From positions 128,001-192,000 of IMG/VR virus record IMGVR_UViG_3300021514_000002: a stretch of 64,000 nt of DNA; one strand, 5' to 3'. The notes beneath the pieces are model-generated. The model had not been told where the DNA came from and searched no databases. It worked only from the letters and a program-made list of their open reading frames with translations. Positions 21,656 through 40,361 of this stretch are shown piece after piece. The position numbers and the translations under genes are program-made. This stretch comes from a virus. Lineage: Duplodnaviria > Caudoviricetes. Positions within the stretch are counted from its first letter, which is position 1, and every line of letters begins with the position of its first letter.

Positions 21656-22673
21656 TTAAAAATATATTTTTGTATCTTTAGGTTTCTTCACTGCGATTGT
21701 ATTATCTAATACGCCATTGATATATGTCATCCCAGTCATTGTGGTTGATGTCGACATCAAAGCTTCGGTGCCTAAACGTTTATCCGTGAAATCTTTATTA
21801 ATAAAATCCTTTATCTTTTCATCAGGGGAATGGTGCCGTGTCGCCCTGACTAATTCTTTACCTAATGTTAAGGTACGTTTCAACAGATTGACATTGCTAC
21901 ATTCAGAATAGAACAATGCTTTGGATTCCTGAATATATTCAACGCATGTCATAACTTCTGCAGTTAAGGTTACCTGCTTCTCTGCCCATTCATCTGCTTT
22001 CCATTCATGGGCGTGTGACGTTTGTGTGATGACTAATAATACTATTACTATTACGAATAAACATTTCATGATTGTCTCCAATATTGTATGCATGATATTT
22101 AAATTATTTATTCACACGATATCGCTGTTAAGGCGAATCCTCCACGTGCCGCATACCCTAGATAACATTGGCTGTCAAAATCAAATTTGATATAAATGGG
22201 TTGGACGCCCCATCTAGTAAGTGTAGCCCGTGTTGAAATGATTTCCGTTATGTCGGCACCCTGTGGAACATTCCGTAATGCCTGTTTGTAATGTGGTGAT
22301 AGTAGGATTTCTGGTTTATCAGCTGCATGAGCCTGATTAATAACATTTGATGTTGCCATTAATATGGCTAACCATAAGGCGAAAAGTATTTTCATTAGGG
22401 ATTTCCTTTAGTTGGGCAGTTAATATTAGCGGATGTTCCTTGTTTATGAAAGCGGCTTTGAAGGAAACATTGTCCCCTGAATTTAAATATTATATAGGCT
22501 AAGCTGGGGTTTTTAGTTGGTACCCATTCAATGATTGTAGCACCCTGTGGCAATACTTGTTCGGTATATCTATCAACCACTTCTTTCTGACTTTTAGGCA
22601 TGTCACTTTGTGCCATTAGACTGACAAGTAAAATGCCGAAGAGTATTATTAAAACAATATGTAATAATTTCAT
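21656..22673 (-). other. Three small exported or membrane-anchored hypothetical CDS (21656-22093, 22108-22395, 22395-22673)
   Basis: Each has an N-terminal signal-peptide-like hydrophobic segment (e.g. MKILFALWLAILMA..AHA). Confidence 0.7.
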
Positions 22674-22681
22674 AAAATCTC

Positions 22682-23143
22682 CTATGAGTTAGTAAGCACT
22701 GGATGTTCACAGTTTTCAAGTGCCCAGTCTGTCCAATACTTTAACCACTGGATACGTGCCCAAGCGCCGCCTAGTTCTGTGTCAAAAATATCAGCATCTG
22801 GGTCCAGAGTTTTGGCTTGCATTTTTAAGCGATTGTAAGCAGTGTCAATGGCTTCCTTGAATTCCTTATTAATAGGGAACGCACCAGGATGCCCACCACG
22901 GATGTTACCAGAAGAGCCGTCCTCAACCATATAATACATTGCGTGCAAGATCTTAGCATACTTACAGAATTCGTACCAGCTGGTATATGATGGCCAACGT
23001 TCATTTGTATAGTCCGTAGGTTCCCCAAATGCGGGAGCATCGTCCATACGAACACCTGCTGCAGTAATGCGACAATATGCTTCTAAGCCGTCTTCTACAT
23101 ATGATTCAATATTAGCTTCGCCAATCGTTAATGTGTAACCCAT
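22682..23143 (-). CDS. Hypothetical protein (153 aa)
   Basis: GGAG RBS; follows promoter repeat 23156-23190. Confidence 0.7.
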   Translation of the reverse strand: MGYTLTIGEANIESYVEDGLEAYCRITAAGVRMDDAPAFGEPTDYTNERWPSYTSWYEFCKYAKILHAMYYMVEDGSSGNIRGGHPGAFPINKEFKEAIDTAYNRLKMQAKTLDPDADIFDTELGGAWARIQWLKYWTDWALENCEHPVLTNS

Positions 23144-23230
23144 TTAATTCTCCAGTGTTAATAAGCATTTATTATATAACAATAGGTTACGATTGTCAAT
23201 GGTGATTTACATTAGTAGAAGATTTTTCTA

Positions 23231-23737
23231 TTATAATTTACATGGAACACCATTACAAGTATCAACACCTTCCGCATCACATTGGACAAATTCACTCGTG
23301 TGGCCAGCGTTTGCATTATACATATACAAAAGATGATGCACGAATTCATGTCGTAGCGTTTCCCTGTCCGAATGACAATTGCGAGGGATAAGGTCAGTAT
23401 CAGTATTGATAAAGATTGTGTCAGGCTGCGTCGTGATGCCGCTGGCCATGAAAACTCCCCAGCCACCAAACTGGCCATTGTAGTCTTCCTTAAAACTAAT
23501 GTACTTAATTGTTGGACCAGTACCAGATAGGCTTAAACAAGATTCTACACTTTTGTAAACGCTTTCCATTTCACCAAATGTGATAAAAGCTTCGCTTGTT
23601 GGCGTTAGTGTCAACCCTGTACTACCAACCATGCCATTTGTATAATTGTGTTTGGTATCGCAACCAGGATATTCGGGTTCTTCACAGCCAATAAGTAACA
23701 TAATAGGTAATAATAACAATAGCGATAAATGCTTCAT
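23231..23737 (-). CDS. Lipoprotein with HEXXH zinc metallopeptidase motif
   Basis: Lipobox LLIGC; RHEFVHHLL. Confidence 0.65.
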   Translation of the reverse strand: MKHLSLLLLLPIMLLIGCEEPEYPGCDTKHNYTNGMVGSTGLTLTPTSEAFITFGEMESVYKSVESCLSLSGTGPTIKYISFKEDYNGQFGGWGVFMASGITTQPDTIFINTDTDLIPRNCHSDRETLRHEFVHHLLYMYNANAGHTSEFVQCDAEGVDTCNGVPCKL

Positions 23738-23838
23738 ACTTTACTCCCGTTGTAATATTTGGATTTAAAAATGTATGTTAATAAGCATTTATTATATAAC
23801 AATAGGTTACAAAAGTCAAGAATGTTATGGCAGACACA

Positions 23839-23866
23839 AAAAAGCCGCTTAAAGAAGCGGCTTTTT
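23839..23866. terminator. Intrinsic (bidirectional-type) terminator
   Basis: AAAAAGCCGCTT-AAAG-AAGCGGCTTTTT downstream of the OMP gene. Confidence 0.85.
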
Positions 23867-23887
23867 AATATTAAAATATTCTTTATA

Positions 23888-24391
23888 TTAGAAAGAGTAT
23901 TTTGCACCAAGGTTTACAGTGTCAAGATCGAAATCTGAAACACCAACAGTAACTTCGCGGCGTGTATATCCAACAGTAACATCAAGATTATCTGTAACAC
24001 CAAGAGCTAAACCTGCACCATATGCAAGACCAGTATCATATATTGCCCCGCCGCAACAAGCGAACTTATTGCGTGCATAACCAACACGGCCAGTTACTTT
24101 AAGAGGCATACTAGCAATAGTAGCAACGGTAGGATCAACTACAGCCCATACAGCAGCAGACTGTGCAGTAACACCGTCTTCTTTACCAATATAGTCATAA
24201 GTTACTTCTGCAGCAAGCCAAGAAGTGACATCATAACCAACACCAACACCACCACCGTTAACGCTACCGCTTTCGTTGTTGATATGGGTATTAGCAACAT
24301 TACCTGTTACATAAAAGTCAGACGCCGAAGCAGTACTAACCATACTAACCATTGCGATTACTGTTAAGACGATTCCAAAAATTTTCTTCAT
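23888..24391 (-). CDS. Outer-membrane beta-barrel protein (OmpA/Ail-like, 8-stranded)
   Basis: Signal peptide ..ASA, amphipathic strands GVGVGY, YGAGL, C-terminal LGAKYSF. Confidence 0.85.
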   Translation of the reverse strand: MKKIFGIVLTVIAMVSMVSTASASDFYVTGNVANTHINNESGSVNGGGVGVGYDVTSWLAAEVTYDYIGKEDGVTAQSAAVWAVVDPTVATIASMPLKVTGRVGYARNKFACCGGAIYDTGLAYGAGLALGVTDNLDVTVGYTRREVTVGVSDFDLDTVNLGAKYSF

Positions 24392-24683
24392 TTGTTATTC
24401 TCCATTGATTTAAAAGTTTTATTTATCACCACAATAACGTATATTGTAATGTGATTATGTATACTACACGAATAATCTTGGGTTGTCAAGGGGGATGTGA
24501 TAATAATGTGACGATTGTGTGATGATATAGGGGTGTGATGATTATGTGATCATTGTGTGATCATTGTGTGATTGGGATAACTGCATTATCGGACGATAAC
24601 GGGAGCATGTTATCATCCTGCAGGTTGCTGTTCTAATCATAGAACCCCTAGTAACTATGTTATTCAATAGGGACAGTGTTACA

Positions 24684-24737
24684 CAGTTGTCAACAGTTGT
24701 CAACAGTTGTCAACAGTTGTCAACAGTTGTCAACAGT
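24684..24737. repeat. Tandem 10-mer (CAGTTGTCAA) x5
   Basis: Five exact units plus partial; reverse complement TTGACAACTG. Confidence 0.95.
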
Positions 24738-25071
24738 GGAAGACAGTTTTTAATGGTGACCATTATAATGAGCATAACACCCCCTTGTGCCTATTATAAT
24801 AGTCATTATGGTCTACGTGTGAACCATAAGACATCCTTATGTACCGTGTGTAGACCATTTGAAACTGTGGAGAACTGTGGAGAACTGTCTTCCACTGTCT
24901 TCCACTGTTACCATAATAATGGTATATTAGTCAGTTATTGTATTAGAATACTATAATAATGGTATATTAGAATATTACCATATACTGATATATGCACCCA
25001 GGGTTGACGTGCCCCCATTATAGTATAACACATATAGAAAGCTTGTCAAGTCTTTTTTTCATCTTTTTGCC

Positions 25072-25151
25072 TGTGGATAACCTGTGGATAACTTATCGAC
25101 CGCCCAGGGTGGGCGTACTATTATTATAACAAATTAGGTTACAAAAGTCAA
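25072..25151 (-). promoter_or_regulatory. Promoter plus conserved element with two DnaA boxes (copy 1)
   Basis: TTGACT-17-TATAAT then CCCTGGGCGGTCGATAAG-TTATCCACA-GG-TTATCCACA. Confidence 0.75.
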
Positions 25152-25327
25152 GCTTTATTTCATTTATTTCTAAAGTATTCTGAAATGTTTTGGGGGAGTT
25201 TATTTAATAGGTATGTAAGCGATACGATCATGAACAATGCATATGTAGTCCCAGACAGTATTGCCCAGCCTATGCTATCTGGTAATAGGTGGATTAATAC
25301 TTCTACTACAACGAAGTACACATGGCA

Positions 25328-25558
25328 TCAGGTATCTGCCCAATGTATCTGTATTGAATTACTTTGACCAAAGCCTTCGTAGCCGTCTTCTATACACGCT
25401 TGGATATCAGCGGGGGTATAGTCTTCAAAGTTAGATAGTCGGTCTGACATCGCATCTATGAAAGCCCGTTCAGCAAGTACTACGTCATCGCGTGTAAACC
25501 TTTGAAGGCTTTCAACCATCTCACCTATAATTACTATTACGTATACATAATTACTCAT
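25328..25558 (-). CDS. Hypothetical protein (76 aa)
   Basis: GGAG RBS; early-region ORF. Confidence 0.6.
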   Translation of the reverse strand: MSNYVYVIVIIGEMVESLQRFTRDDVVLAERAFIDAMSDRLSNFEDYTPADIQACIEDGYEGFGQSNSIQIHWADT

Positions 25559-25592
25559 AATTCTACTCCCATACCTCGAAGGCGATCTTTAG

Positions 25593-26078
25593 TTAAATAT
25601 GTTTCCAATTATTCCTATTAACGACCATTTTAATAGCACTTCTACTAACACTATATTCTGTCCCTAGTTCTTCTTGTGTATAATTTCCAGTTGAATATTT
25701 TTCACGTATTTCAAGTACTTCGTATTCATTTAATATTCTTTGTGGGTTTATTTCCCCTTTGTTACTTCCACCCATTGCACGACCTTTGTTTACTTTGTCA
25801 TTGACATTGTCAGCATGGGTGCCAAGCCATAAATGCTCTGGATTAATACAACATGGATTATCGCAAGAGTGGCATACAATTAACCCATTAGGTATTTTAG
25901 ATTCATTATAAAGTTCATAAGCAATCCGATGTACTCGTGTTGTCTTATTATTTAAACTCATGATCGCGTAACCAGCCTCGTTTTTATAGGCTTGCCATTC
26001 CCAACACCCAGTATCTTGAACTGTAATAATATTTTTTTCAAGTCTTTCTTGTAATGACCATTCTCTGTTATATACCAA
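25593..26078 (-). CDS. HNH homing endonuclease (HNH_3-like)
   Basis: CWEW..GY..VHRIAY..VCHSCDNPCCINPEHLWLGTHADN. Confidence 0.9.
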   Translation of the reverse strand: MVYNREWSLQERLEKNIITVQDTGCWEWQAYKNEAGYAIMSLNNKTTRVHRIAYELYNESKIPNGLIVCHSCDNPCCINPEHLWLGTHADNVNDKVNKGRAMGGSNKGEINPQRILNEYEVLEIREKYSTGNYTQEELGTEYSVSRSAIKMVVNRNNWKHI

Positions 26079-26150
26079 TGTTGTTTCCTTATAAAAGTGG
26101 GGACATTATTACATGCCCCCAGTATCATGTCAAGAACTTTTGTAACCTAA

Positions 26151-26888
26151 TTATTCAGTGAAGTCTACCATTTCATAAGTTTCAATAAACTCATTGATGT
26201 TTGCTTCCATGTAGTTACAGATGCGATCTGTTATTAATTCATCACCGTGACTACTTTTACGAATTTCATCAATGACAGCAACAATAGCATCGTGGGACAT
26301 TGTTTCATCTTCGTCACTGGGTTCTAGATCTGCAAGAAAGCAGTCATAGCTTGGCAAGCCATCCAATGAATAAGTTGTTACCAGACCAACAGCTGAATAA
26401 CCATTGTCACCAATGTCATTGCCGAAGCGTGAGCCTTCTGGTAGCTTTCTTTGTCCGAATCCACTGTATACTTCGAGGGTGTTTTTATCAAGGTCTACAA
26501 CGTACGCCCATTCGCAGAATAGTCCATCTGTCGCAAATTCAATTTGATCGGCAAGTTGAACAGGTTCAGTAGCGTCTTGAATAAATTCCAAAATAGCACC
26601 ACCCATATCACGAGAAAGTTGCGGATGTACTTTATTGAATTTTTTAGAAACCTCCATGGTTACCATGTCACTATCGTCAGCACCAAACTCTTTCCATAAT
26701 GCCTTCTGTTCCTCGGTTGTAATGAAGAATGATTGTTTCAAGTTTTCAATAAACTTTTCTTTGTCCATTCTTTTCAAGAATTCTAAAATGATTTTGCCTT
26801 GACCAGACGGATAGCCGTCCCATTGGCCGTACTGTGCTACACGGTATTCGCCATTCAGCATGACGCATGTTAAATTACGTGTCCCCAT
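26151..26888 (-). CDS. Conserved phage hypothetical protein
   Basis: MGTRNLT..YGQWDGYP motif, CEWAYVVDLD. Confidence 0.75.
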   Translation of the reverse strand: MGTRNLTCVMLNGEYRVAQYGQWDGYPSGQGKIILEFLKRMDKEKFIENLKQSFFITTEEQKALWKEFGADDSDMVTMEVSKKFNKVHPQLSRDMGGAILEFIQDATEPVQLADQIEFATDGLFCEWAYVVDLDKNTLEVYSGFGQRKLPEGSRFGNDIGDNGYSAVGLVTTYSLDGLPSYDCFLADLEPSDEDETMSHDAIVAVIDEIRKSSHGDELITDRICNYMEANINEFIETYEMVDFTE

Positions 26889-26959
26889 AATTCTTACCTT
26901 TAAGTTTGTTTAAGTATAAAGAATTGTACCCCAATTAAGGGGTACAGTCAAGCAATAGA

Positions 26960-27559
26960 TTAACGAAGCCAGTATTCAACGCCATCAAAATCAACGCTGG
27001 TATAATCCATTTGGATGTCACTTGCAACGCCTTCCCAATCGATATTGTTTTCAATATAACTGGGAATGTCTTGTGGTAAGTCGCCTATGTCTTGAATTAA
27101 ATCTTTGGCGTATTCTTCAAAGTAGGAATCACGGATCAATGCCGTACCATATTCCCAATCAGGGGCATAACCTTCAGCATCTTCTGCTAATGATTTAATA
27201 GGTTCCAGTTCTTCATTGGCTTCTGCAATGTCGTTTTCAATCGTAGTGATATTATCTTCAAGTTCTTGAATTTCAGAACGAAGTGAATCAACCGCGTTTT
27301 CAATTTCAGCAATTTCATCAGCGTCGTCTTCATCGTCAAGTTCCTGCGACTTATCTTCGAGCTCATCAATCTCAGCTTCTTTGTCTTCAATTTCAATACG
27401 ATGGTCGTTGGTGTCTTCTTCCCAACCACTAATATCTGATTCAAGTTCATCAATACGTGCAATGACATCGCGCGAATCAATGATGTCTTCTGAATTGTCT
27501 ACTTCGTTTGCCATGATATTATTTCCTATATTTGTTAACGATAAGTAATTATAACCCAT
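26960..27559 (-). CDS. Highly acidic coiled-coil protein with ArdA-like C-terminus (possible anti-restriction DNA mimic)
   Basis: Very Asp/Glu-rich; LPQDIPSYIENNIDWEGVASD resembles the ArdA YIDYEAYxRD tail. Confidence 0.45.
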   Translation of the reverse strand: MGYNYLSLTNIGNNIMANEVDNSEDIIDSRDVIARIDELESDISGWEEDTNDHRIEIEDKEAEIDELEDKSQELDDEDDADEIAEIENAVDSLRSEIQELEDNITTIENDIAEANEELEPIKSLAEDAEGYAPDWEYGTALIRDSYFEEYAKDLIQDIGDLPQDIPSYIENNIDWEGVASDIQMDYTSVDFDGVEYWLR

Positions 27560-27579
27560 CCTTGGGTAACTGTCAAATA

Positions 27580-28296
27580 TTAATTCTTAGAAAACTTAAT
27601 AAATTCATCAATATTTTCTTTAGCAAAGAGTATGATTTCGTTAATAATAGTGTCGGGGGTATCTAACTTATCCTTAGCGCAATCAATCATATCAATAACA
27701 TCTTGACGTTCTTCGTCTTCATCTTCGTCAAAGTTATAGCCCATTATATCTTCGGCGAATCGTTTCCATTGTTCATCATCGTTGCTTAACATGTTTTCAA
27801 CTTCACCATTTGCAATGATGATGTTACCAGAGAAGTAACCACCTTCTTCAACTACGTCAATTTCAAATTCCAAAGTTGGATATAGTTCTGCCAACTTTTC
27901 AAAAATTGGATCGGGTGTTGACCATGCAGTTTGGAAAGCAAAACAATTTTCACAATGATCAGCAGGGCTATAATCATAAGCACCCCACTTAGTACCTTGA
28001 TTAGTAACTTTCCAATCATACCAGTTATCGTGACCATAGGATTCGATCAAGCGTTTAGACTTCTTTTCCCATGCTTTATATTCTACACTGTCAGGTGAAG
28101 CTTCTTTACCATCTACCCGTGGTGGGCTGTTGGGCGCGCGCGTGCCAGCCAGCTCTGCAGGGAATGGAATAATTGTATCGAATTCAAAACAGTCCTTACC
28201 ATTTTCGCCTTTGGCGGTAACGTGATTATCGAAAAACTTTTTAACTTCTGCATCTGTGCCATTGACAGACATAATATGGTAGACATGATTTGGCAT
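27580..28296 (-). CDS. DUF1281/YubB ferredoxin-like domain protein
   Basis: MPNH.., WYDW....GTKW, FQTAWSTP..IFEKLAELYPTLEF. Confidence 0.7.
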   Translation of the reverse strand: MPNHVYHIMSVNGTDAEVKKFFDNHVTAKGENGKDCFEFDTIIPFPAELAGTRAPNSPPRVDGKEASPDSVEYKAWEKKSKRLIESYGHDNWYDWKVTNQGTKWGAYDYSPADHCENCFAFQTAWSTPDPIFEKLAELYPTLEFEIDVVEEGGYFSGNIIIANGEVENMLSNDDEQWKRFAEDIMGYNFDEDEDEERQDVIDMIDCAKDKLDTPDTIINEIILFAKENIDEFIKFSKN

Positions 28297-29496
28297 AATT
28301 TTTACCTTTAAATTTGGTTGTGATGATTATGTGATTGTAACCTAATTGTGATAGGTTGTCAATAACTAATATTCAGCAGGTGTTACGTCCATTGGACGAT
28401 CAGTCAATTTACGAGCCTTACTATAAATGTCACGGATAGATACACTCTCGCGCTCGCCCTTACTGTTAATAGCTTCGGCAAAACCAATAATGTAACGCAA
28501 TTTTTCTGCCCCTGATTCCATAAAGATCGCAACCTCGCCATCTATTAAATGTTCAGATACTATTAACGGTAAATCTATTTCAGTTTCATTGTCATCTTCT
28601 TCATCATATGAATATGTAGGCCATCCAGCACCATCAGCATCATTGCCGAGAATAACAAAACCATCATCGTTATTTTGTTCAACCTCAATGCCGGGAATTT
28701 CTAACATTGCCGCTAAAAATGCTTCATCGTCTTTTACTTTGAAATAATTTGTTCTGCAATTTGCATGATAATTTGCCATGATATTTTCCTTGTGATGGTT
28801 ATGTGATTAGATAGATTCTACCATATCATTAATGATAGTATCAATTTGTTCAGTTGTCAAACCTTTAACAGGTACGCATCGTTCGTAAGATACTTCTAAG
28901 CCCTTGTCGCGACCATATTCAAAGTCAAGGTTAGTACCAGCAAGGAATAAGATTTCGTCTCCACCTGATTCGTTACGGCCATTATCAGCAGAATAATACA
29001 TTGCCCGTAACTGATAAAAGAACGTACCGCCTTCGGTTAAATAATCGCTTTCTGTTTCACTTAACTCTTCGGCTAACTCACCCAGATCCATATCATATAA
29101 TGAATGATAATTAATGACATTAGGATTTGGATTCTTAATTTGTTCAATCAAGTAATAAAAACCAAGGCTTTCTGAATTTTTCTCACAAAAAGCTTCGAGG
29201 GCATCTTGTAAAGACTGTTCAATTACTTTATCGAGTTGGTTAGATACTTTTTCATTAGCTGACATATTACCAGAGCTAAATCCAGTATGTAAGTCTGTAG
29301 GTACGGTTAGATCAAAGCCACCGTTTGTAAATGGAATAAACCCATCATATCCTTTATGGTTAATGGGTTGTACTTGTGTATCAATACAACCACCATAATT
29401 TTCTGGTAGGTCATCCATCGCATCTTGAAACTTTGTTTCAATGTGTGATGATAATGTGACGGGTACATTCATGAGTTGCATATCTAATTACCTTTA

Positions 29497-29548
29497 TTTG
29501 TTGACGTTAGAGCTATTATTACATAACCCTATATCTTTGTCAATAACT
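29497..29548 (-). repeat. 52-bp promoter cassette repeated exactly at 32665-32716
   Basis: TTTGTTGACGTTAGAGCTATTATTACATAACCCTATATCTTTGTCAATAACT identical in both; variants near 30244 and 38715. Confidence 0.9.
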
Positions 29549-30684
29549 TAATTAAACATTTCAATTTGTTGTGGTGATTCTGTGATGTCATACTTTATAG
29601 CGGACTTAATTTCACTAATCATATGATCAGCATTGTATCCAAAATAGCCCCAGCAAGAATCGATGTCTTTTTCTTCACCAGCATCATCTTTAACGATACT
29701 AAAACCGTAAACTTCGCCAGTAAGATACTGGTCATATGTTTCAACTTCACCAGTAAGATGCGTTGCAACCTTTTTGCGCCATTTTAAAGAAACACGCTGA
29801 AGGCTATATTCTTTACGAATATCTTCATGAGATATATAGATATACCCTACGCGGCCAGAATCCCAGCCACATGAAAACCCGCCTGTGTTCATTGTGATAC
29901 CTGAATGATCATATAGGTACAATGGCAATACTACATATTTCTTATGTACAATTTCCCAACATTTATCGATTTGTTTATCGGTTAAATATTCATAACATTC
30001 TTCATCATACAATCCAGACAATTCATGTACCATTGCAATTGGGGTTTCAAAATCATGTTTGTCGCCAAGATTATAACGGTTATGAAAACAGACCATAGTG
30101 CCAAGGTTATCCCACTCACGCGGGCTTTCTGACATATCATCATGTTCGATCTTGATAGTATAATCCCCGAATTCAGTAGTTTCCATATAAGGAATGTGTA
30201 ATGCTTCGAGATTTAATGTATCGTGGTTCATGGTAATTACCTTTTGTTTGTTGACGTTAGGGCTATTATTACATAGCCCTGTTTGTTTGTCAATAACTAA
30301 TCGTGTTGTTTATCAATTTCATTTTGTAATTGATTAAGTAAACCAATTGTAGTAACTAAGCGATCAATAGCATCACTTGTATCTTTGCGACGTGCATGTA
30401 ACATAGTTTGTATTTCAATATCATCCTTTTCTGATAACATACGCACTTCATCGGCAGTAGTAACAACATCCTCTAATACTGTATCGTCTTGAAAATCGCA
30501 CTGCATTTCTAATGCGCGCATTAATGAGTTCACTTGTGATTGTGTGGTAAGAGCGAGCGTAATAGTTTTCATAGTCTTTACCTTTTGTTTATTGACAGTG
30601 GGCACATTATTACATAGCGGCATATCCTTGTCAACAATTAATTTGTATATTAGTATATCTGAATATTCTAATATACCTGCCCAT

Positions 30685-30768
30685 ATTTGCCAGTTCTATG
30701 TAGACTTTTCGCCTTCGGCTTTCCTTAGCTTCTGTAAACATTATAGCCCATCCTTGGGCTACTGTCAA
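30685..30768 (-). ncRNA. Candidate small RNA with own promoter (copy B; paralog at 42000-42110)
   Basis: Hairpin promoter followed by GTTTACAGAAGCTAAGGAAAGCCGAAGGCGAAAAGTCTACATAG; no ORF. Confidence 0.45.
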
Positions 30769-31480
30769 CAACTATTTCGTATAAGTTTCCATAATTATTT
30801 CAATACATTCTTTCTGCATACGTGGTGTTAATACATATTCCAATATCATAGCACTATCGATGATAGCGTCATACAGCGCACCTTCTGTTCGTGTTGGATC
30901 ATAGTCCCCAGCGTCAGCCATTTTCATTATATGTTCTGCCACTTCGTCTACAACACCTTCTGCACCAACTACATAACCATCGACACTGTTTATTTCCACA
31001 AATTGACATTTATCAATATGCCAACCATCAAGGTTATACATGATATGGTTTATCAGTTCATCATCCCGAAGAACGGTAGTACTTACATCCCATGCAGGAT
31101 AGTTCATAGGGGTATGTGCAATTTGTAGATACTTTCCGTTCTGTCCAATTTCTGCAAACAATACTACGCTTCCTTCTTCACTACTAAAGGCATTGTTGCC
31201 ACGTTCTGTAATATCTAAGTTCATAATGTTTCTCCAATATTATTGTAAGTATTTCTTTGCGTGATATGTTGCCATGCGTGCCTTGTTACGTACTGCACGC
31301 TCTTGTTCTCGTACACTTTCAGAAGAAGGTGCGTAAGTTAATTTGAATACCCATCGCGGGGATAAGAAAGCAATCCACGCGTTAAGTAAATGTAATGGTA
31401 AGTAATAGAATATTTTAATCATAAGTAATTGTAACCCAATGTGTTAGGGTTGTCAACAATTAATATGGATAAATATTATT

Positions 31481-31987
31481 ATGGATATTATAACAAGAAA
31501 AGAAGCGAAGAAATTAGGATTAAAATACTATTTCACTGGAAAACCATGTAAGTATGGACATATTGCTATTAGGCTGACCACTAACTGGGATTGTTTGGAA
31601 TGTAATAAAAAATATAAAAAGAATTATTACTATAAAAATAAAGAAAGTATTATTTCTTATAATATTGCATATAATAAGAAATTGTGGGAGGAATGCCCAC
31701 AAATAAAAAGAAGTTATGATAAAAAATACCGCGAACAGAATCCAGAAAAGCGTATAAAGTATTTACGTAAGCAGAAGAGTGCAATACCCCAATGGCACGA
31801 AACTGATCTTGTAAAACAATTATATCTTAAACGTGACCAATTATCTAAACTGTGGAATATTTCTTTACATGTAGATCACGTAGTACCACTACAAGGCAAG
31901 AATGTTTGTGGTCTTCATTGTTGGGATAACCTACAGTTATTAGAAGCAAGCCTCAATATATCTAAACATAATAAATTTAAAGAATAA
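31481..31987 (+). CDS. HNH homing endonuclease, inserted antisense to its neighbours
   Basis: IITRKEAKKLGLKYYFTGKPC; HVDHVVPLQGKNVCGLHCWDNLQLL; paralog of 20430-21140. Confidence 0.85.
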   Translation: MDIITRKEAKKLGLKYYFTGKPCKYGHIAIRLTTNWDCLECNKKYKKNYYYKNKESIISYNIAYNKKLWEECPQIKRSYDKKYREQNPEKRIKYLRKQKSAIPQWHETDLVKQLYLKRDQLSKLWNISLHVDHVVPLQGKNVCGLHCWDNLQLLEASLNISKHNKFKE

Positions 31988-32016
31988 AAAACACCAGCCG
32001 AAAGAGGTGGCTGGTG
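31987..32016 (-). terminator. Intrinsic terminator
   Basis: CACCAGCC-loop-GGCTGGTG followed by TTTTT on the minus strand. Confidence 0.75.
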
Positions 32017-32160
32017 CTATGTGTGCCAATAATAGCACTAAAATTGTTCTGTTTGACAAAGCAGCCCCCAGCCAATACGCTCTTTGTCCGAAGAACCTTT
32101 ATAGTCCCCCTTAGCCACCTACAACCACATTCTACGTAACGTGGTCAAGCGTTCGGGCTT

Positions 32161-33634
32161 TTATCCCCAAAAACCGTCTTCCATTGGTTCCATGTTTTCA
32201 AAGCAACCATCCTGTGCGAAGTCCATTAACTCTTGCTGTTCTAGCAAGTGGTTATTATCTTCGTCAAAATCGTACTGTAAATCAAAATCTTCTGCGTAGT
32301 CGTCTTCCATTGTATTGTGCCTTTTAAGTCCGTTGACAGTGGAATAATTATACATGTTATTTAGGTTATGTCAAGAATTATTTTTAATAAACCTTAGTTG
32401 CAATTACCTTATCTGTGCCAGTATTAACAACAGACACAACTTTTTTAATCATGTCCTTGACATTATCAAAATCCAACATTAACTCAGGTAATGGTTCACG
32501 AACCTGCATATTTGTTAAACAATGTGCAATGCGCGTTATAGCTCCAGTCAATGAATAACTAATCATTTGATCATCGTTCGCTTTAACCATTAATGTAAAC
32601 AAGTTACCAAACGGATCTTTTAATGAAAGTTTTGCAAGTACAGTTGCCATAATGTGTTACCTTGTTTGTTGACGTTAGAGCTATTATTACATAACCCTAT
32701 ATCTTTGTCAATAACTATTTCAGGATTCTTTTCAGCCCTTCAACCACCAGCTGATATTGTTTAGCTAATGTCATGTCAAACAGTCGATCAACTGTTATAA
32801 AATAATCCGCATAATATCCAACTTCTGTTACGCCTAATGGTGCTAGTTCTTTTAAGATACATTCAATATCTTCATCGTTTTGCTCGCTTGTGCGATTTAT
32901 CACACAACCATCAGGCGTAGATATTACGAAACTTCTTATTTCATAACCATCGACTTCGTTCATAACTTTGTTACTGCTACAATTTTAGCATTCTGCGCGC
33001 GTAAATATTTCGCCTTTGCAAGTGCTGGGGTTTTACTTGCTCCATCTGGTATGGTGAAAGTATTTTCAACTTTTAAATATGGCGCGGTTGGTTTACCATC
33101 ACGAATGTCTCGCACAGTATACGCTTTTACCATTACACCATTTTCTTTATTGATTGTTCGATGAGCGGCATACAATGTAGCGGCATATGAATCACCAATA
33201 TTAAAAGTATCTTTTAAAATACTAATTGCATTCTCACGCTTGGTTGCTGTTTGACTATCAAGCACAGTGAATGCGCGTTGCCGTACCGAATTTGGATCTT
33301 TTTTACGTGCCATTTAAATTTCCTCTTGTTCGTCGTCTGCTTTACCATTGATAGTACAAGGACGAAACTTATACAATGGACAATTCTTTGAAGTACAATC
33401 TTCAACTTGTTTACGCCAACTACCACACCCCAATGCTTCGGGGTCATAGATACATTCACAACACATCGCATTGATGGCTGCAGCGCGCCCCTTTTTACTA
33501 CGGAGTTTATTCATTACTTTTTCTTTCTGATCTGTTTTCATATTTGTTACCTGATCTGTTTTAAGAAACTTATGTAAGACCAGTGACACGACATGAATAC
33601 CTAGTCGACTCCAGCTATGCTGGCTTGGTTTCAT
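32161..33634 (-). other. Small early hypothetical CDS (32161-32355 very acidic, 32384-32650, 32715-32963, 32960-33313, 33314-33634)
   Basis: Co-directional ORFs with promoters and RBS. Confidence 0.7.
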
Positions 33635-33720
33635 CCCGTAGCAAGGGCATTCCTAGTTACACTTGCCGCCTGTTTCCAGACTGTTGTTTTTCAACAACTA
33701 CCACTTAATCTTACATAAGC
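33568..33720 (-). ncRNA. Candidate structured RNA (multibranch, about 150 nt)
   Basis: ~18-bp closing stem (33568-33585/33702-33720), two GAAA-capped hairpins, promoter at 33737-33765. Confidence 0.5.
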
Positions 33721-33895
33721 TCCCTACGTTGAGAACATTATTACACAACCGTAGTTCTTTGTCAATAACTTTAAGCCCTTATAAGTGCTCTTATAGTTTA
33801 TTACCCTGCGCGTCAGGTCGCGTCTATAAGATCGGCGTGGCAATTTGACGCCGATGTTTTACTTTTAACATACATTGTATGTTCTTCTTATAAGC

Positions 33896-34069
33896 AGCCC
33901 CTAACAGGATTCGAACCTGTGAGAAGATAATACAATAACGATGTTTTGGGGACATCAAGACAATTACCCAAAATCCTTGTCTACACACTACACTTAGCGC
34001 AATTGTATGCAATGTATTATCTAAGTCGCTTCTTCAAGTGACTCCCTAAGCCGACAGGGGGCTAGGGGC
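33896..34069 (-). ncRNA. tRNA-like RNA with ~98-nt insertion at the variable arm
   Basis: Acceptor GCCCCTA/TAGGGGC, T-arm ACAGG-TTCGAAT-CCTGT, D-loop with GG, imperfect anticodon arm; no encoded CCA. Confidence 0.55.
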
Positions 34070-34199
34070 ATAGATTTATTCTGCCCACCTCACGACACTG
34101 GGTGGCGATGCCGTAACATTCCTACATGATTGCGTTCCTCTTTGTTTGTTGACAGTGGGGATATTATTACATACCCCTAGTTATTTGTCAATAACTATT

Positions 34200-34796
34200 T
34201 TAATACATTGTCCTGAAACACCACATAGTTATCCATGCCAACGCACCCGATAATAATATAATGTCGCGTGGTAGACGCAGGTTAATCTTTTCGGTAACAT
34301 GCACTGGATTAAGGAGTAACATAAAAACATATATCGCCATACTTAATACCCACCACCCAAAACATACGAATGTCATTACTTTTGGATCTAATAAAAAATC
34401 AAACATGTTATTCTCCAGTTAAGAACCCATAACGAATTTATATATTTTTACACCCCGTGGGGTCTTAGTCTTACGTGGTGCTACTGCTTCCAAGAAGATA
34501 TGATGATAATCACCGGTGACCTGAATCATTTCGTTAGCGACTACAGCAAGGTCTAACCAAGTAGGATTTTCTAATACTTTACTTTGGTATGTTTTACCTT
34601 CGCCCCAAAATTCATCGTGTTCTTGTATGACCATAACCTTACCACTAACTGCAACCTGTTTAAGATTGTTTAGTGGGTTGTCAGTTGTCTTAGAAGTTTT
34701 GTACGCTGAATAAGACACGTACATCTTCTCGCCTTCTGGTAAAGCCGCATGAATAGCATCACTCATTTCATCTAGTTTTTGACCATATTCTGACAT
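34200..34796 (-). other. Two hypothetical CDS (34200-34406 membrane protein; 34419-34796)
   Basis: Downstream of a promoter at about 34830-34858. Confidence 0.7.
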
Positions 34797-34861
34797 AACT
34801 TAATTCCTTTGTTTGTTGACTGTGGGGACATTGTTACATGCCCCCGTTTGTTTGTCAATAA

Positions 34862-35458
34862 TTATTTTGAACATATCCAAACAGGTGCTGACTTAGTACC
34901 ACCTAGAACTTGAACAGTGTTAAACTGTTCTAATAGTAATTGCACCATTTCAGAAACTGTGATATCAGCCTTGCGTGGCGACTGTGGAAAATTCGCGTAG
35001 AACCTACCATCGTCTTTTACTACTTCCGCAACCTGTTTAATAGTTTCACGCGCCATGTCGAACCCTGATTGAACATTCAACACGTTTGACGCATATACAA
35101 TATCGTATTTCTGCATCAATGCTAATTCGTTGTGAACCCGTGGATCAATGTTGTCACCGAATTCGTATGCTGTTACCATCCAACCATCAGCCAACATTGC
35201 CTGTGCATGTGCTGCAGATTTACCTGCGCCAAAATCCAACACTGTTGCGTCTTCTTTATCGTAAAACAATTCTAAATATTCACGTACAAAGCGTGGCGTA
35301 ATAGCGTTCTTGCCTACTGCACCACTATTACGTGATGTCTTGTTTGCTACTTCAATATCTGTTTGTTTGAACATACTAAATTGCCTTTGCTTGTTGACAG
35401 TGAAGCTATTATGGCACAAGGCATTGCCCTTGTCAACAAATGTTTTAATCTGCTTCAC
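34862..35458 (-). CDS. Class I SAM-dependent methyltransferase
   Basis: VLDFGAGK motif I; YDIVYASNVLNV; true start probably MFKQ. Confidence 0.75.
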   Translation of the reverse strand: MKQIKTFVDKGNALCHNSFTVNKQRQFSMFKQTDIEVANKTSRNSGAVGKNAITPRFVREYLELFYDKEDATVLDFGAGKSAAHAQAMLADGWMVTAYEFGDNIDPRVHNELALMQKYDIVYASNVLNVQSGFDMARETIKQVAEVVKDDGRFYANFPQSPRKADITVSEMVQLLLEQFNTVQVLGGTKSAPVWICSK

Positions 35459-37439
35459 TTGACTATGTAATAATGTCTTGTTATAATCTTTATAACGTCA
35501 ACAAACAGGAAGAACATTATGAAAAAAGTCAAATCAACATCAGAGATTATGCGCGCTATCTGGAAAAAACGTATGGAAGGTGGTGAAGATATATTGCGCA
35601 TCGAGATAGGTCGTTACAAGCAACACCCTCAAACCGTAATGAAGTTTATTCGTGACAACGACCTTACTGTAATTAAAAATGATGGTATTTGGGTGGTATC
35701 TAAAAAGTAATTATTGACAGTTGCGTAGGGATGCGCTATAATTCTTTCAACGTCAACAAACAGGAAGAACAATATGCGTAAGACGATTAATATAAAATGG
35801 TTAATCGAACATGTCAACAACTTTAATGCTACCAGTGCTGATCAATATAAGACAGAGCGCGAAGGCAAGAACATGATGCTTGAAATGATCTTACATGAAG
35901 CGGGGGCATATAGTGGGTTTGGTTATTTAGAAGCCCGTGACCTTCGCAAAGATGCCATGTCGGTTGGGGTACGTGAACAAAAGGACGATGGTTCATGGAA
36001 TTTTGATGATACAGATCATACACGCGTTTATTATTACATTAACAGGAGACTATACTAATGGCAGACTTAGCCTTTAAAGAAAAGATTACCAAACGAAAAT
36101 TTGATGCAAAGATGGTTGAAGATTTTGGTTACGATAATATCTATTCATCACCCTATTCTGAAAATGGTGCAGATGGAGATGGATACCACATCGTTAAGAA
36201 AATGACATTGTACTATACTAATGAACATACACATATCGGCACATGGATGAAAGGTGAAGGCTGGATATTTGAAAAAGCATACCAAAAATAGTTATTGACA
36301 ATAGTGCAGGGATGCACTATAATGGTTTCAACGTCAACAAACACAGGCAATAAAAATGTACACCTTTGAAACACATAATACTGACGAAAATATTGATCCG
36401 ACTAATACTTATCTATGTGGGAACTTAGATTGTCCACGCCATGTATTGGTAGAATTATTTGGTGAACCATTTGGCCCAAGTGATAAGGTTATCAATGAAT
36501 GGGACTTAGAAGTTACTGATGAAGTTGGTAAAACTGTTATCATTACCATATATGATTGGAAAAATTATCATCTAACATCTTTGCCCGACGATTACTATAA
36601 TTGGAATATTGGTGGCAAAGGGTATGATGCTGTTACCTTTATTCATGAATTAATTGCGCAACTGAGGACAAAATAACATGGGATATACCACTGACTTCGA
36701 GGGTGTTATTAATATTGATCCACCCTTAAACGAAAAAGAAATTAAATACATTAACAAGTTTAGTGACACGCGGCGCATGAATCGTCGTAACGGTCCATAT
36801 TATGTGGGTGGTACTGGCATTGCTGGACAAGGAGATGATGCAGATATTATCAACTCTAATAGCCCAGACCCAAGCCAACCGGGACTTTGGTGCCAATGGA
36901 TGGTTAATGAAGAAGGTACTGAAATTGAATGGGACGGTGGTGAAAAGTTTTACTATGCTGGTGAGTGGATGAAATATATCATCGATCACTTCATTGGTAA
37001 AGACCCTATTGCCAAACGCAACAACGAACACTTTGATTTTCTTGAAGGTCACAATACCAATGGTGAAATCTATGCTAATGGTGAAGAGTCTGGCGACAAC
37101 TGGAAGATTGAAGTAAAAGATGGTGTTGTAGTTATTAAAGAAGGTACTATCTCTTACGATTGATGTGATGATCATGTGATGCTTGACAACGGAACATATG
37201 ATATGATACTATTAACATTAACAGAAGGGGATGGTATAACAACCCATTTATCTATAGGGGTAGATCCTATAGCAGTGAAGATGGGTGACTTCTTTGAAAA
37301 TGTAATTGGTTTAGAAGTTGAATATGATAAAATTGATAGTGTATATCTACCCACTGTACGCAATCAAGAAGAATCACAACGCGCCGAGTATCTTATAAGA
37401 GAGTGGCGCAAATACGACAGCCACTTGATGGTTGTTAAA

Positions 37440-37600
37440 TAGAATTCTTGCTGTTGTTTGTTGACGCTGCTCTAGCAAGAGCTGGTTGTTAGTATTGAGT
37501 TGTCACACATGGGCAACTATGCCAACGTAATAAGCCCGTATTCCTACATTTGGCATACGGGCTTTCCTATGGCCCATAGAAAATTCACGATACGAACCCC
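37440..37600 (-). ncRNA. Candidate structured RNA with possible pseudoknot
   Basis: 10-bp stem AAGCCCGTAT/ATACGGGCTT, loop GCCAA complementary to downstream TTGGC; promoter 37602-37630; no credible ORF. Confidence 0.4.
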
Positions 37601-37642
37601 CACAATAACAAAGATAATTTTTAAAGTCAATAACTATTTGCC

Positions 37643-37722
37643 TGTGGATAACCTGTGGATAACTTATCGACCACCCAGGGGTGGCGTGGTATTATTATAG
37701 CATACCGCTGACCAATAGTCAA
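37643..37722 (-). promoter_or_regulatory. Promoter plus conserved element with two DnaA boxes (copy 2)
   Basis: TTGACT-17-TATAAT; TTATCCACA at 37654-37662 and 37643-37651. Confidence 0.75.
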
Positions 37723-38077
37723 GAACTTTTTAACATTATTTTTAATTGTTTTTATTGACAAGCGCATAGGCTTATGTAATAATTACCATAGTCAACTAAC
37801 AACAGGTAAGTAACATGATACATAAAAACATTCTATCTATGACCTTAAACGAGCTTAGGAATCTACACCATAATATAAGCAATACACCAAGCGCACATGG
37901 GCATGAATTATCAAAGAAACCGTTCATTGAATGGTTAGATATTGTCATGAATTGGAAAGGTAAAACTATACTTTTCGATACTACCCTTATTGATTTAACT
38001 GGCCTTAAATAATTCTTGACATTAGCCCAGTGATAGGCTAATATTACTACAATCAATTAACAACAGGAAAACATATT

Positions 38078-38716
38078 ATGTGGAAGTATATAAAAGAAAT
38101 CAACTGGGCGGTGCTTAGTAAAACCAATCGTGGTTATAAAGCTGGTAAAAAGTATATGTTGGAAAACTTTACAGCTAAACGTGGCAACGAAATCAATGAA
38201 TTTGTAAGTGAACGCTTTAGTGAACTATACAAACGTATTAATGAATACGAACGTGCCAACGATACGCATTGTGGTGCTTACGGCGGCGATGATTCATTTG
38301 GTGATATGATACACCATGTTATCGGATTAGGTGAAGACAAGTTCAATGAAATCATGGAAGATCCAAGCAAATTAAACGGCATGGAATTTGTAGAATCATT
38401 TAGCTATTGTATGCCGTATGAAGAAGACTACAAAATGCTTAAAGAAGATTATCACGTTGACCGTGCCAAAACAGCCGTGGTTGACTTAGCGCGCATTGTA
38501 ACAGAAAACGCGCCAAGCGGTCAAGACGTAATGGTCATTAAAGAACTAATGAATCGTTTCTTATTAATGATAGCTGGTGATATACATAGCGCACTGGAAG
38601 ATTATAATTATGACAATGATTATAGTCGCCATTATCAATTTGAAGCTAATGATTGCCATGCGTCCTTTGCTAACTATATAAATGATTGTTACGAATATAA
38701 AGATATTCTTTCTTGA
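38078..38716 (+). CDS. DUF4240-like protein
   Basis: MWKYI..INW, GGDDSFGDMIHHVIGLGEDKF..IMEDP. Confidence 0.55.
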   Translation: MWKYIKEINWAVLSKTNRGYKAGKKYMLENFTAKRGNEINEFVSERFSELYKRINEYERANDTHCGAYGGDDSFGDMIHHVIGLGEDKFNEIMEDPSKLNGMEFVESFSYCMPYEEDYKMLKEDYHVDRAKTAVVDLARIVTENAPSGQDVMVIKELMNRFLLMIAGDIHSALEDYNYDNDYSRHYQFEANDCHASFANYINDCYEYKDILS

Positions 38717-39168
38717 CAAACAATTGGGGCTATGTAATAATAGCCCTAACGTCAACAAACAACAGGTAAAATATTATGTCATACGATCAAGATCCAAAAT
38801 ACGCACAAAAACCATGGACGATGTTTATAATGGATGGTTACGGTACTGATTTTATAGTCGCTAATCCATTACATGTGCCACGCAAAGGCGAAGCAATTAT
38901 GGACTTTAACTATAATCCCGCGCCGTTAGTTCAGACTGTGGTGTATGATTACAAAGGCAAACAAATCTTTGTAAAGTGTGAATAAGAGTAATACGTTGTT
39001 GACTACGGCACATGGACGTGCTACTATTAATTACAGTCAACGAATAACAGGTAAAATATTATGACAAGAACAGCGATATTAATAATGGAAGTTGAAATGC
39101 GAATTGAGCAGGCAACACGGCGCAATGTACCCGAAGGGGAATTACAGGAATTGCGGCGCGAACTGTAT

Positions 39169-39381
39169 TCACTTGAAGAACAACTTGAAGATGAACAAGA
39201 TGAAAACTCCTAAACCAACTATATGGGGTATATTATAATTCTTACTTTTTTCAGCAACACATTTAGTACAATCCCTAGAACTAACATATCTATCATCCAC
39301 ATGACCATATTTACACGGGTTTCCAGTGTAGTATTTTTTTAGTCCCTTTACAAGTGCTTCTTTTCTTGATATAATATTCAT
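39169..39381 (-). pseudogene. Truncated HNH endonuclease remnant (N-terminal domain only)
   Basis: IISRKEALVKGLKKYYTGNPCKYGH..DCTKC matches paralogs, then no HNH domain. Confidence 0.6.
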
Positions 39382-39395
39382 TGTAGTATTTATCC

Positions 39396-39440
39396 GATGT
39401 GATGATCATGTGACGATGTGATGATCATGTGACGATGTGA
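39396..39440 (+). repeat. 19-nt tandem repeat GATGTGATGATCATGTGAC x2 plus partial
   Basis: Exact duplication. Confidence 0.9.
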
Positions 39441-39778
39441 AATCAGGAATAAACATGATAGATAATTTAATAATTGGTGAACCTATTGAAGGATTAACAT
39501 TACATGACTTGGGAATAGGGACAGAGGAAACAACATTAACCATAGGGGTGAATGAAGCCATTGAAATGGAATTATTTCTACCACGAATCCTTGTACATGT
39601 TGGTATATTTAATACTACCTCTGAAATCAAGCGCATTAACAAAGACAGACAAAACAGTACGAAGATTAAAGACGAAAATTCACGTAATTTGTGGCGCAAA
39701 CTCAACAAGCCAGAATTCACTTATATAAAATGCGGCAAAAAAACATTCTGGTTATTAGTCGGCGATATAACACAATAA
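39437..39778 (+). CDS. Hypothetical protein
   Basis: AGGA RBS before MIDNL. Confidence 0.65.
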   Translation: MKSGINMIDNLIIGEPIEGLTLHDLGIGTEETTLTIGVNEAIEMELFLPRILVHVGIFNTTSEIKRINKDRQNSTKIKDENSRNLWRKLNKPEFTYIKCGKKTFWLLVGDITQ

Positions 39779-39849
39779 GCGAATATTAGTACATCCTAAT
39801 AAGCGAATATTCAAACGTACTAATACGCTCCCACTTTTTACAGGCAAGA

Positions 39850-39879
39850 GAAAAGCCCTGAATTATATCAGGGCTTTTC
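39850..39879. terminator. Bidirectional terminator between convergent genes
   Basis: GAAAAGCCCTGA-ATTATA-TCAGGGCTTTTC. Confidence 0.85.
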
Positions 39880-39881
39880 GT

Positions 39882-40142
39882 TTAATTCAAGTCAGCTAAT
39901 ACGTACTCGCCAGCTTGGATCTTTTTGCGGGTTATCGCGATGCCTTCACCTAAGAACTTGTTACGATACTTTCCTGTAGTTACTGAATAATCCCACTTAT
40001 TCTCGTCGAGGGTGATTTTGCCGCCTTCGTTAATAGCGATAATAGACTGATAGCTCTGGAATGTTTCTTTATTCCCATCAGTAATAATAAACTGATTAGC
40101 AATATCATTGCCTTGCGCGCTTTGCATGTTTTGTACTTTCAT
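39882..40142 (-). CDS. Conserved phage hypothetical protein (86 aa)
   Basis: NQFII..FQSYQSIIA..WDYSVTTGKYRNKFL. Confidence 0.75.
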   Translation of the reverse strand: MKVQNMQSAQGNDIANQFIITDGNKETFQSYQSIIAINEGGKITLDENKWDYSVTTGKYRNKFLGEGIAITRKKIQAGEYVLADLN

Positions 40143-40213
40143 AATATTTCCTTTCGTTTGTTGACTGGGGATATAGTACCAACATGGCGTGCAGTTGTCA
40201 ACAATTATTTGCC

Positions 40214-40282
40214 TGTGGATAACTTATCGACCGCCCAGGGGTGGCGTGGTATAATTATAGCACATGGTCAAGCCCTTGTCAA
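40214..40282 (-). promoter_or_regulatory. Promoter plus conserved element with one DnaA box (copy 3)
   Basis: TTGACA-17-TATAAT; TTATCCACA at 40214-40222. Confidence 0.75.
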
Positions 40283-40361
40283 GAACTTTTTAACACATTT
40301 AATTGTTGACAACCGTTGACCATTGCCCTATAATTACCACAGTCAACGAATAGGTGCAATC

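Follow-up and report, generated by a model that had tools for sequence, protein, structure and literature searches.

Why would a T4-like jumbo phage place perfect matches to the binding site of the bacterial replication initiator DnaA directly behind strong early promoters, and do so at three places in one region? In textbooks, T4-type phages exemplify replication and early transcription that proceed without the host initiator. The question is raised by a 64,000-nucleotide stretch of DNA (hereafter, the window), comprising positions 128,001 to 192,000 of IMG/VR record IMGVR_UViG_3300021514_000002, a virus record of 363,531 bp that is rated complete. On its minus strand, the window carries three copies of a unit in which a promoter reads into one or two DnaA boxes of the sequence TTATCCACA. 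The best reading of the three units is that they represent copies of a single conserved regulatory cassette, found in a small clade of T4-like jumbo phages from vent and marine sources. As to its function, we put at slightly below one in two the probability that host DnaA gates tandem early promoters, with origin-priming transcription as one of three outputs.

Each cassette spans approximately 120 bp and is built in the same order: a promoter (P1), a 25-nucleotide block, one or two boxes repeated at an 11-bp phase and each followed by GG, and a second promoter (P2) (Table 1). In all three copies P1 is close to the sigma-70 consensus, with TTGACW and TATAAT separated by 17 nucleotides and a TG preceding the -10 element. 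It is followed by ACGCC(C)ACCCCTGGGYGGTCGATAAG and then by TTATCCACAGG, of which copies 1 and 2 have two repeats and copy 3 has one. If transcription starts at the A of ACG, as we infer, the boxes occupy about +26 to +45 relative to P1 and, for copies 2 and 3, about -48 to -67 relative to P2. With starts placed by consensus, P1 and P2 would begin 81 bp apart in copy 3 and 92 bp apart in copy 2. By consensus match, the cassette consists of tandem sigma-70 promoters with a DnaA box between them. The sequence reads as the original prediction had described it, with three minus-strand promoter-to-box copies at these places, and its statement that the unit is free of open reading frames (ORFs) agrees with our observation that no plausible ORF lies inside. 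Three points had been missed, namely, the second promoter of each unit, the T4-type early-region context, and the conservation in related phages.

The context puts the strength of P1 in proportion. Window positions 21 to 41 kb form an early-gene region in which each small gene has its own near-consensus sigma-70 promoter, and 29 promoter-like sites matching 11 or 12 of the 12 consensus positions are observed in a 20-kb stretch. The claim of a strong promoter in each unit is therefore right as far as its near-consensus sequence goes, but this is not special to the unit. These early promoters form repeat families, in which TTGACA, a spacer with a variable hairpin, and TATAAT are followed by a GTCAACAAAC leader and a ribosome-binding site. 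Because the region is full of such promoters, a strong P1 is ordinary here, and the special part of the cassette is the leader that replaces the usual one. Judged from their sequence, the promoters of the region are the kind of cassette called PeSL in T4-type hyperplastic regions, where small variable genes are bordered by repeats of a strong sigma-70 early promoter with a stem-loop (PMC2839356). The units share with PeSLs the repeated sigma-70 early cassettes and the variable small cargo. However, the stem-loop here lies inside the promoter spacer, a DnaA-box leader replaces GTCAACAAAC, and no DnaA boxes are mentioned in the 2014 PeSL paper.

As originally counted, the window contains seven perfect TTATCCACA boxes, all of them intergenic and on the minus strand. 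The accompanying estimate of about one box by chance is matched by shuffles of the window (guanine-plus-cytosine [GC] content, ~35%), which give an expectation of 0.97, with none of 100 shuffles reaching seven. The whole genome contains 13 boxes, among which the seven of the window are the only ones that are tandem and located in promoter-bearing noncoding DNA. The other six are single, and five of them fall inside ORFs of 109 to 513 amino acids. The excess of boxes in the genome is thus entirely due to four sites, i.e., the three cassettes and a fourth site at 21.3 kb. This fourth site had been grouped with the units; it does hold two perfect boxes, but the pair comes without P1 or the block and abuts an array of 11-bp repeats. 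The block itself, represented by CCCTGGGYGGTCGATAAG, is found in the genome at the three unit sites only.

We recovered 17 distinct cassettes in total, comprising the 3 of the window and 14 further copies in 12 loci of related phages. Homologues were found by a DNA pattern consisting of the block end and the first box, which retrieved metagenome contigs as well as two contigs of a gammaproteobacterial metagenome-assembled genome (MAG). In all 17 cassettes, the P1 spacer measures 17 nucleotides, 6 nucleotides separate the -10 element from ACG, and the block is 25 nucleotides long, such that the first box starts exactly 25 nucleotides after the presumed P1 start. The CCTGG and GATAAG motifs of the block are invariant throughout, and all 35 tandem boxes are perfect. 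In addition, the distance from the last box-plus-GG to the -35 element of P2 is exactly 10 nucleotides in the 11 cassettes of the copy 2 and copy 3 types. Promoter spacers and cargo vary among the cassettes, and the number of boxes moves in 11-bp steps, with counts of 1, 2, 3, or 2+2: copy 3 has one box in the window and two in its orthologues, and the near-identical loci L250 and L251 have two and three, respectively. The same loci diverge strongly in their promoter spacers, which gives weight to the unchanging boxes; within the close clade, the boxes are conserved while their flanks diverge. Each of the three cassette types has its own orthologues, which indicates that the triplication is older than the clade and has been retained, and the phage contigs of one MAG carry all three types.

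Two further samples are independent of the first-box pattern. Loci fetched via the 86-amino-acid protein encoded downstream of copy 3 contain the cassette in all four cases that include upstream sequence when the proteins share 77 to 83% identity, and in none of three cases at 69 to 74% identity. A further cassette on a MAG contig has a block ending in CTGATAAG instead of TCGATAAG. In locus L301, one of those fetched via the 86-amino-acid protein, the block ends in ACGATAAG, which is outside the reach of the DNA pattern, and the second cassette at this locus is of the copy 2 type. An IMG/VR scan for the block gave no matches, and a second scan gave 40, all of which were unrelated high-GC coding DNA. 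No related loci were obtained via two neighboring early proteins, and those obtained via a DUF932 neighbor belonged to other kinds of phage and lacked the cassette. A Dam (GATC) site in the block was also considered as a defining feature and was discarded, being found in most relatives but absent from the window and from L301.

The phage encodes neither a DnaA AAA+ domain nor a DnaA DNA-binding domain (domain IV), and the boxes would therefore be bound by the initiator of the host. Such binding by host DnaA appears quite likely from the sequence of the sites. TTATCCACA is the exact universal high-affinity DnaA consensus, and (A)AG-TTATCCACA-GG in tandem at 11 bp is present in at least 119 unrelated IMG/VR viral stretches, with GG as the commonest spacer between tandem boxes (81 of 147 among the matches listed). 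Contigs of a related phage were also observed in the gammaproteobacterial MAG G016 (2.3 Mb, 36% GC), namely, C200, C11, and C8, corresponding to loci L297, L231, and L298. A contig of the same MAG carries dnaA flanked by perfect TTATCCACA boxes. The MAG may thus point to the host of that relative, but the phage is linked to it by binning only, possibly as an artefact.

It is also conceivable that the repeat is not a DnaA site and that a phage protein binds the block together with the 11-nucleotide repeats, or that the repeats act in the RNA leader of P1. The conserved unit does exceed the box, with CCTGG and GATAAG invariant and GATAAGTTATC forming a palindrome, and all boxes are in the transcribed-strand sense of P1. 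Moreover, the second 11-bp repeat set of the region, RTCACA, is equally unexplained and must have a binder of its own. We nevertheless consider this explanation unlikely, as the 9-mer equals the universal DnaA consensus in every one of the tandem boxes, its flanks (AG ahead of the box and GG behind it) recur in more than 100 unrelated viral stretches, and copy number changes in helical-turn steps, as for a DNA site. An RNA element was examined separately and rejected: the three P1 leaders fold no better than shuffled sequences (z = -1.2, -0.3, and +0.4), an alignment fold of nine leaders contains no compensatory pair, and Rfam gives no match near any gathering score.

Among the functions named in the original prediction, a DnaA-gated roadblock on early transcription fits the anatomy best, given the fixed spacings of 25 and 10 nucleotides, where we infer DnaA binding. 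Because spacing is strict on both sides while the box number changes, the boxes probably work with both promoters. DnaA bound at about +26 to +45 of P1 could block escape or elongation of the polymerase; an orientation-dependent block of transcription by DnaA was reportedly described by Schaefer and Messer in 1989. The bound protein would end 12 bp upstream of the P2 -35 element, leaving P2 uncovered, and may shield P2 from P1 read-through or assist it. The supply of free host DnaA would then set the amount of transcription leaving the cassette, and this supply would fall as phage genomes, with seven strong boxes each, multiply. Three small outputs would be affected, i.e., an origin-like module behind copy 1, an RNA of ~65 nucleotides behind copy 2, and an 86-amino-acid DUF8033 protein behind copy 3.

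Boxes that multiply with the phage DNA might instead act as a sink for host DnaA, in the manner of datA or by plain titration, which would stop initiation on the host chromosome. Seven perfect high-affinity boxes per genome are compatible with this, and the likeness to datA lies in non-origin DnaA boxes that lower the pool of active initiator. However, datA is one cluster with an IHF site and without a constraint on promoter spacing, whereas the boxes here are split into groups of one or two and tied to a pair of promoters. A fixed distance to two promoters is unnecessary for a sink but is kept in all 17 cassettes, and many T4-like phages shut the host down by means other than DnaA titration. 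The datA-like titration that had been suggested leaves the spacing unexplained, and we regard it as very improbable.

Gating of two promoters by host DnaA has a counterpart in the dnaA region of Escherichia coli, where a TTATCCACA box lies between p1 and p2, bound DnaA represses, and repression is lifted by titration when a plasmid supplies additional boxes (PMC8203912). The cassette resembles this region in having two tandem sigma-70 promoters with a perfect box between them. The starts of dnaA p1 and p2 are roughly 80 bp apart, to which the 81 and 92 bp of the cassette come close. Unlike in E. coli, autoregulation is absent, since a noncoding module, a short RNA, and DUF8033 take the place of dnaA as cargo; the box is present in duplicate at an 11-bp phase, and the carrier is a virulent T4-like jumbo phage. 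In phage lambda, host DnaA near pR stimulates origin-activating transcription and early gene expression (PMC8203912). Host DnaA near a phage promoter, as at lambda pR and ori-lambda, is what we propose here from the sequence. In contrast, lambda is temperate, possesses its own initiator O with iterons, has a different box layout, and lacks a threefold tandem-promoter cassette.

The outputs of copies 2 and 3 appear to be small and exchangeable. Copy 2 points against a converging operon, and its only possible product is an RNA of ~65 nucleotides that ends at a hairpin. This hairpin is kept in L244, L297, and L301 though the sequence of its stem changes, and the product is either a candidate small RNA or merely reflects a shared two-way terminator. 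The DUF8033 protein behind copy 3 has more than 2,300 homologues (E < 1e-5), many of them from marine metagenomes. Its AlphaFold model is very confident (pLDDT, 94.5) and comprises a sheet of five strands, two helices, and one last strand; no PDB entry matches it at E <= 0.001. DUF8033 follows the copy 3 cassette in the window and in L231, while an unrelated small gene occupies the same flanks in L238 (3900-4120); L238 and the window share the downstream terminator and the converging gene around their differing cargo. In run X4, which contains a diverged strain, 344 bp are replaced, starting 9 bp upstream of the -35 element of copy 3 P1. On sequence grounds, both the gene swap and the replacement look like PeSL-type cargo shuffling.

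Copy 1 heads a 630-bp stretch without a credible ORF, in which the order of parts is conserved in five relatives: a P2 leader CAACCCTGG ... TATATCAGTATATGGTAATATTCTAATA, an AT-rich stretch, box-like sites, ACTGT / TTGACAACTG repeats, and an RTCACA array. The AT-rich stretch (80 bp) falls within the lowest 2.8% of 50-bp segments of the window, and its conserved motif TATATCAGTATATGGTAATATTCTAATA occurs in relatives. By analogy, this module resembles a T4-type transcription-primed origin, and origin-priming transcription is likely an output of copy 1 rather than the function of the cassette itself. In T4, oriF and oriG consist of a promoter and an AT-rich downstream unwinding element where the transcript forms an R-loop, while oriE combines an early promoter with evenly spaced direct repeats and small early genes (PMC3016281). 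Several active origins are found per T4 genome, located where transcription diverges and base skew turns, and DnaA plays no part in them (PMC3016281). The phage studied here shares with T4 a Gp23 capsid, and copy 1 and the 21.3-kb site carry elements of the oriE or oriF/G type. Unlike at T4 origins, DnaA boxes are present, the repeats measure 11 rather than 12 nucleotides, copies 2 and 3 lack an unwinding element, and origin activity is putative.

The original prediction had also named transcription-activated multiple origins. In the main rival to DnaA gating, all four box sites are replication origins, where host DnaA opens the DNA or helps load the helicase while the promoters activate or prime, as in lambda or T4. 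Tandem DnaA boxes are a hallmark of DnaA-dependent origins, and the AT-rich stretch of copy 1 lies downstream of the boxes in the orientation that R1 and the DNA unwinding element have in E. coli oriC. The origins of the iteron plasmids P1 (oriR) and F (oriS) hold two adjacent DnaA boxes beside a direct-repeat array, which the box pair and long repeat array at 21243-21370 resemble. The unit there is 11 bp, however, as opposed to 17 to 22 bp in the plasmids, and no Rep-type initiator gene was found nearby. In addition, T4 has at least five origins, so multiplicity would be normal, and copies 2 and 3 are located at divergent promoter pairs where GC skew changes sign, as T4 origins are (PMC3016281).

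Nevertheless, an AT-rich element downstream of the promoter is found at copy 1 only. At copies 2 and 3, the minimum GC of 50-bp segments downstream is >= 0.24, and the single segment of 0.20 GC at copy 2 lies upstream of P1. These two copies drive a terminated RNA and a protein gene, each site offers only one or two boxes, and the fixed 10 nucleotides to the P2 -35 element point to promoter function. The phage has a helicase and a polymerase of its own, no initiator gene lies beside the arrays, and T4-type origins need no DnaA, which goes unmentioned in the T4 review (PMC3016281). GC skew was discarded as an origin marker, as cumulative skew follows gene direction and reaches its genome-wide minimum at 290 kb, not here, with only a local turn at ~165 kb. 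We thus find transcription-activated origins plausible for copy 1 and for the 21.3-kb site, which have an AT-rich stretch and/or a long 11-bp array, but not for copies 2 and 3, and origin function at all four sites is doubtful.

Two features of the copy 1 module were observed in passing. Five exact tandem copies of TTGACAACTG, equivalent to five -35 hexamers in a row, lie inside the noncoding module at window positions 24674-24723 (minus strand); relatives have one copy of TTGACAACTG followed by ACTGT-type repeats. CAACCCTGGGTG, which nearly duplicates CACCCTGGGTG, the core of the P1 block, is found in the P2 leader of the module (25000-25015) and in the P2/Px leaders of L226, L237, and L246; a near-palindrome centered on CCTGG thus recurs just after two different promoter starts.

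The second repeat system of the region is equally regular. The genome contains 18 RTCACA-N5-RTCACA pairs with a spacing of exactly 11 bp and none with a spacing of 10 or 12 bp. All but one of these pairs are confined to window positions 21243-39433, where they are always on the minus strand, irrespective of how the local genes are oriented. Some of the repeats overlap an early promoter at its -10/+1 region or its leader. Among related loci that extend far enough, nearly all contain such an array ~0.5 to 0.85 kb downstream of the cassette. Evenly spaced direct repeats of the oriE type are therefore present in the form of RTCACA at its strict 11-bp period, a form that recalls OmpR/PhoB-type direct-repeat sites and the T4 oriE iterons. 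No Rep-like or DnaA-like initiator gene was detected near the arrays or elsewhere in the genome.

Gating of tandem early promoters by host DnaA has to be weighed against several observations. DnaA does not account for CCTGG and GATAAG, the motifs that never vary in the block. The pattern that retrieved eight of the related cassettes includes the first box, whose conservation in these eight is a product of sample selection. In relatives retrieved via the capsid protein (65 to 79% identity; contigs of up to 350 kb, one of the records being of 292 kb and rated 90% complete), boxes are only single and scattered; nine of them, examined with their surroundings in the four closest such relatives, apparently lie mostly inside ORFs. 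The cassette is therefore an add-on specific to a clade and not part of a T4-like core; conservation of the boxes in relatives, which had been proposed as a check, holds in the close clade and is lost at 65 to 79% capsid identity. A DnaB-family helicase and a family-B DNA polymerase are encoded by the phage, so there is no obvious need for DnaA in replication. In addition, the strength of a roadblock depends on the firing rate of the promoter (PMC4132739), and a very strong P1 may push the bound protein off. Finally, the RTCACA arrays in the same places could be the real key to the region.

A bolder form of DnaA gating would make host DnaA a timer, which holds back origin-priming transcription and two small early products until phage genomes have titrated DnaA away, and so acts as a copy-number sensor by which the phage controls its own T4-type origin. 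We judge this form improbable as it stands. If DnaA gating is true, some T4-type phages read the replication state of the host or their own copy number, and one T4-type origin may be under the control of the host initiator.

DnaA-regulated promoters, T4-type origins, and PeSL cassettes are already known, and tandem DnaA boxes are frequent in viral contigs. The claim that the arrangement is undescribed in phages has to be narrowed accordingly: our literature search turned up no paper that describes DnaA boxes in jumbo or T4-like phages, but tandem perfect boxes spaced by 11 bp are present in the >= 119 IMG/VR stretches described above. What is new, as read from the sequence, is the combination, i.e., a dnaA-like p1-box-p2 cassette that is triplicated, keeps its exact spacing in a T4-like jumbo clade, and heads an origin-like module. 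Given the tandem boxes in more than 100 other viral contigs, its function may bear on a wider and little-studied phage habit.

Table 1. Positions of the cassette parts, the fourth box site, and associated features in the window.
Feature	Position	Strand	Remarks
Copy 1 P1	25123-25151	-	TTGACT, 17 nucleotides, TATAAT; TG before -10
Copy 1 leader block ACGCCCACCCTGGGCGGTCGATAAG	25092-25116	-	25 nucleotides, from presumed P1 start to first box
Copy 1 boxes TTATCCACA-GG-TTATCCACA	25072-25091	-	Two perfect boxes, 11-bp period
Copy 1 P2	25022-25049	-	TTGACA, 16 nucleotides, TATACT; TG before -10
Candidate unwinding element (AT-rich stretch)	24910-24990		18-20% GC, just downstream of copy 1 P2; repeated TAATAT-type motifs
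Two weak box-like sites, TTCTCCACA twice	24866-24884	-	Same position in L237: TTATCCACA and TTATTCACA
RTCACA array, copy 1 module	24496-24572	-	Strict 11-bp period; located upstream of the outer-membrane-protein gene promoter
Copy 2 P1	37694-37722	-	Back to back with plus-strand early promoter 37755-37783
Copy 2 leader block	37663-37687	-	25 nucleotides
Copy 2 boxes	37643-37662	-	Two perfect boxes
Copy 2 P2	37602-37630	-	TTGACT, 17 nucleotides, TATTGT; -35 starts 10 nucleotides past last box-plus-GG
Hairpin GCCCGTA...TACGGGC, then TTATT	37534-37562	-	Likely end of the ~65-nucleotide P2 transcript
Copy 3 P1	40254-40282	-	12/12 consensus; back to back with plus-strand promoter 40306-40334
Copy 3 leader block	40223-40247	-	25 nucleotides
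Copy 3 box	40214-40222	-	Single, perfect; two in orthologous cassettes of relatives
Copy 3 P2	40173-40201	-	TTGACA, 17 nucleotides, TACTAT, then usual GTCAACAAAC leader and ribosome-binding site
86-amino-acid gene, DUF8033 / PF26096	39882-40142	-	Driven by copy 3 (predicted)
Fourth site TTATCCACA-AT-TTATCCACA	21351-21370	-	Two perfect boxes without P1 or block
Long RTCACA array	21243-21348	-	Adjoins the fourth box pair (21351-21370), in a 515-bp noncoding region
RTCACA arrays	21243-21348, 22014-22030, 24496-24572, 28319-28335, 28791-28807, 29444-29460, 37164-37180, 39398-39433	-	

The carrier of these cassettes is a giant T4-like jumbo phage of the deep sea and of virulent type. Its major capsid protein is of the T4 type (Pfam Gp23, E = 8e-97), and phage sequence is contained in hydrothermal-vent metagenome runs, with the identical strain present in a second, independent vent study. 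No RNA run was among those listed as containing the phage. A marine run contains a diverged strain that is mostly <95% identical, and a megablast search with 5 kb against public phage records returned no close relatives. The first gene past the noncoding module of copy 1 (23888-24391, minus strand) encodes an outer-membrane beta-barrel protein of 167 amino acids with a signal-peptide-like start (Pfam OMP_b-brl, E = 3e-16), and a phage gene of this kind implies a Gram-negative host.

The gene next to the 21.3-kb array encodes an HNH / endonuclease VII-like protein. Three genes of this type are present in the window (20430-21140, minus strand; 25593-26078, minus strand; and 31481-31987, plus strand), two of which are paralogous at their 5' ends (inverted repeat 21054-21152 / 31469-31567). 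These genes adjoin box-bearing noncoding regions and possibly encode homing endonucleases.

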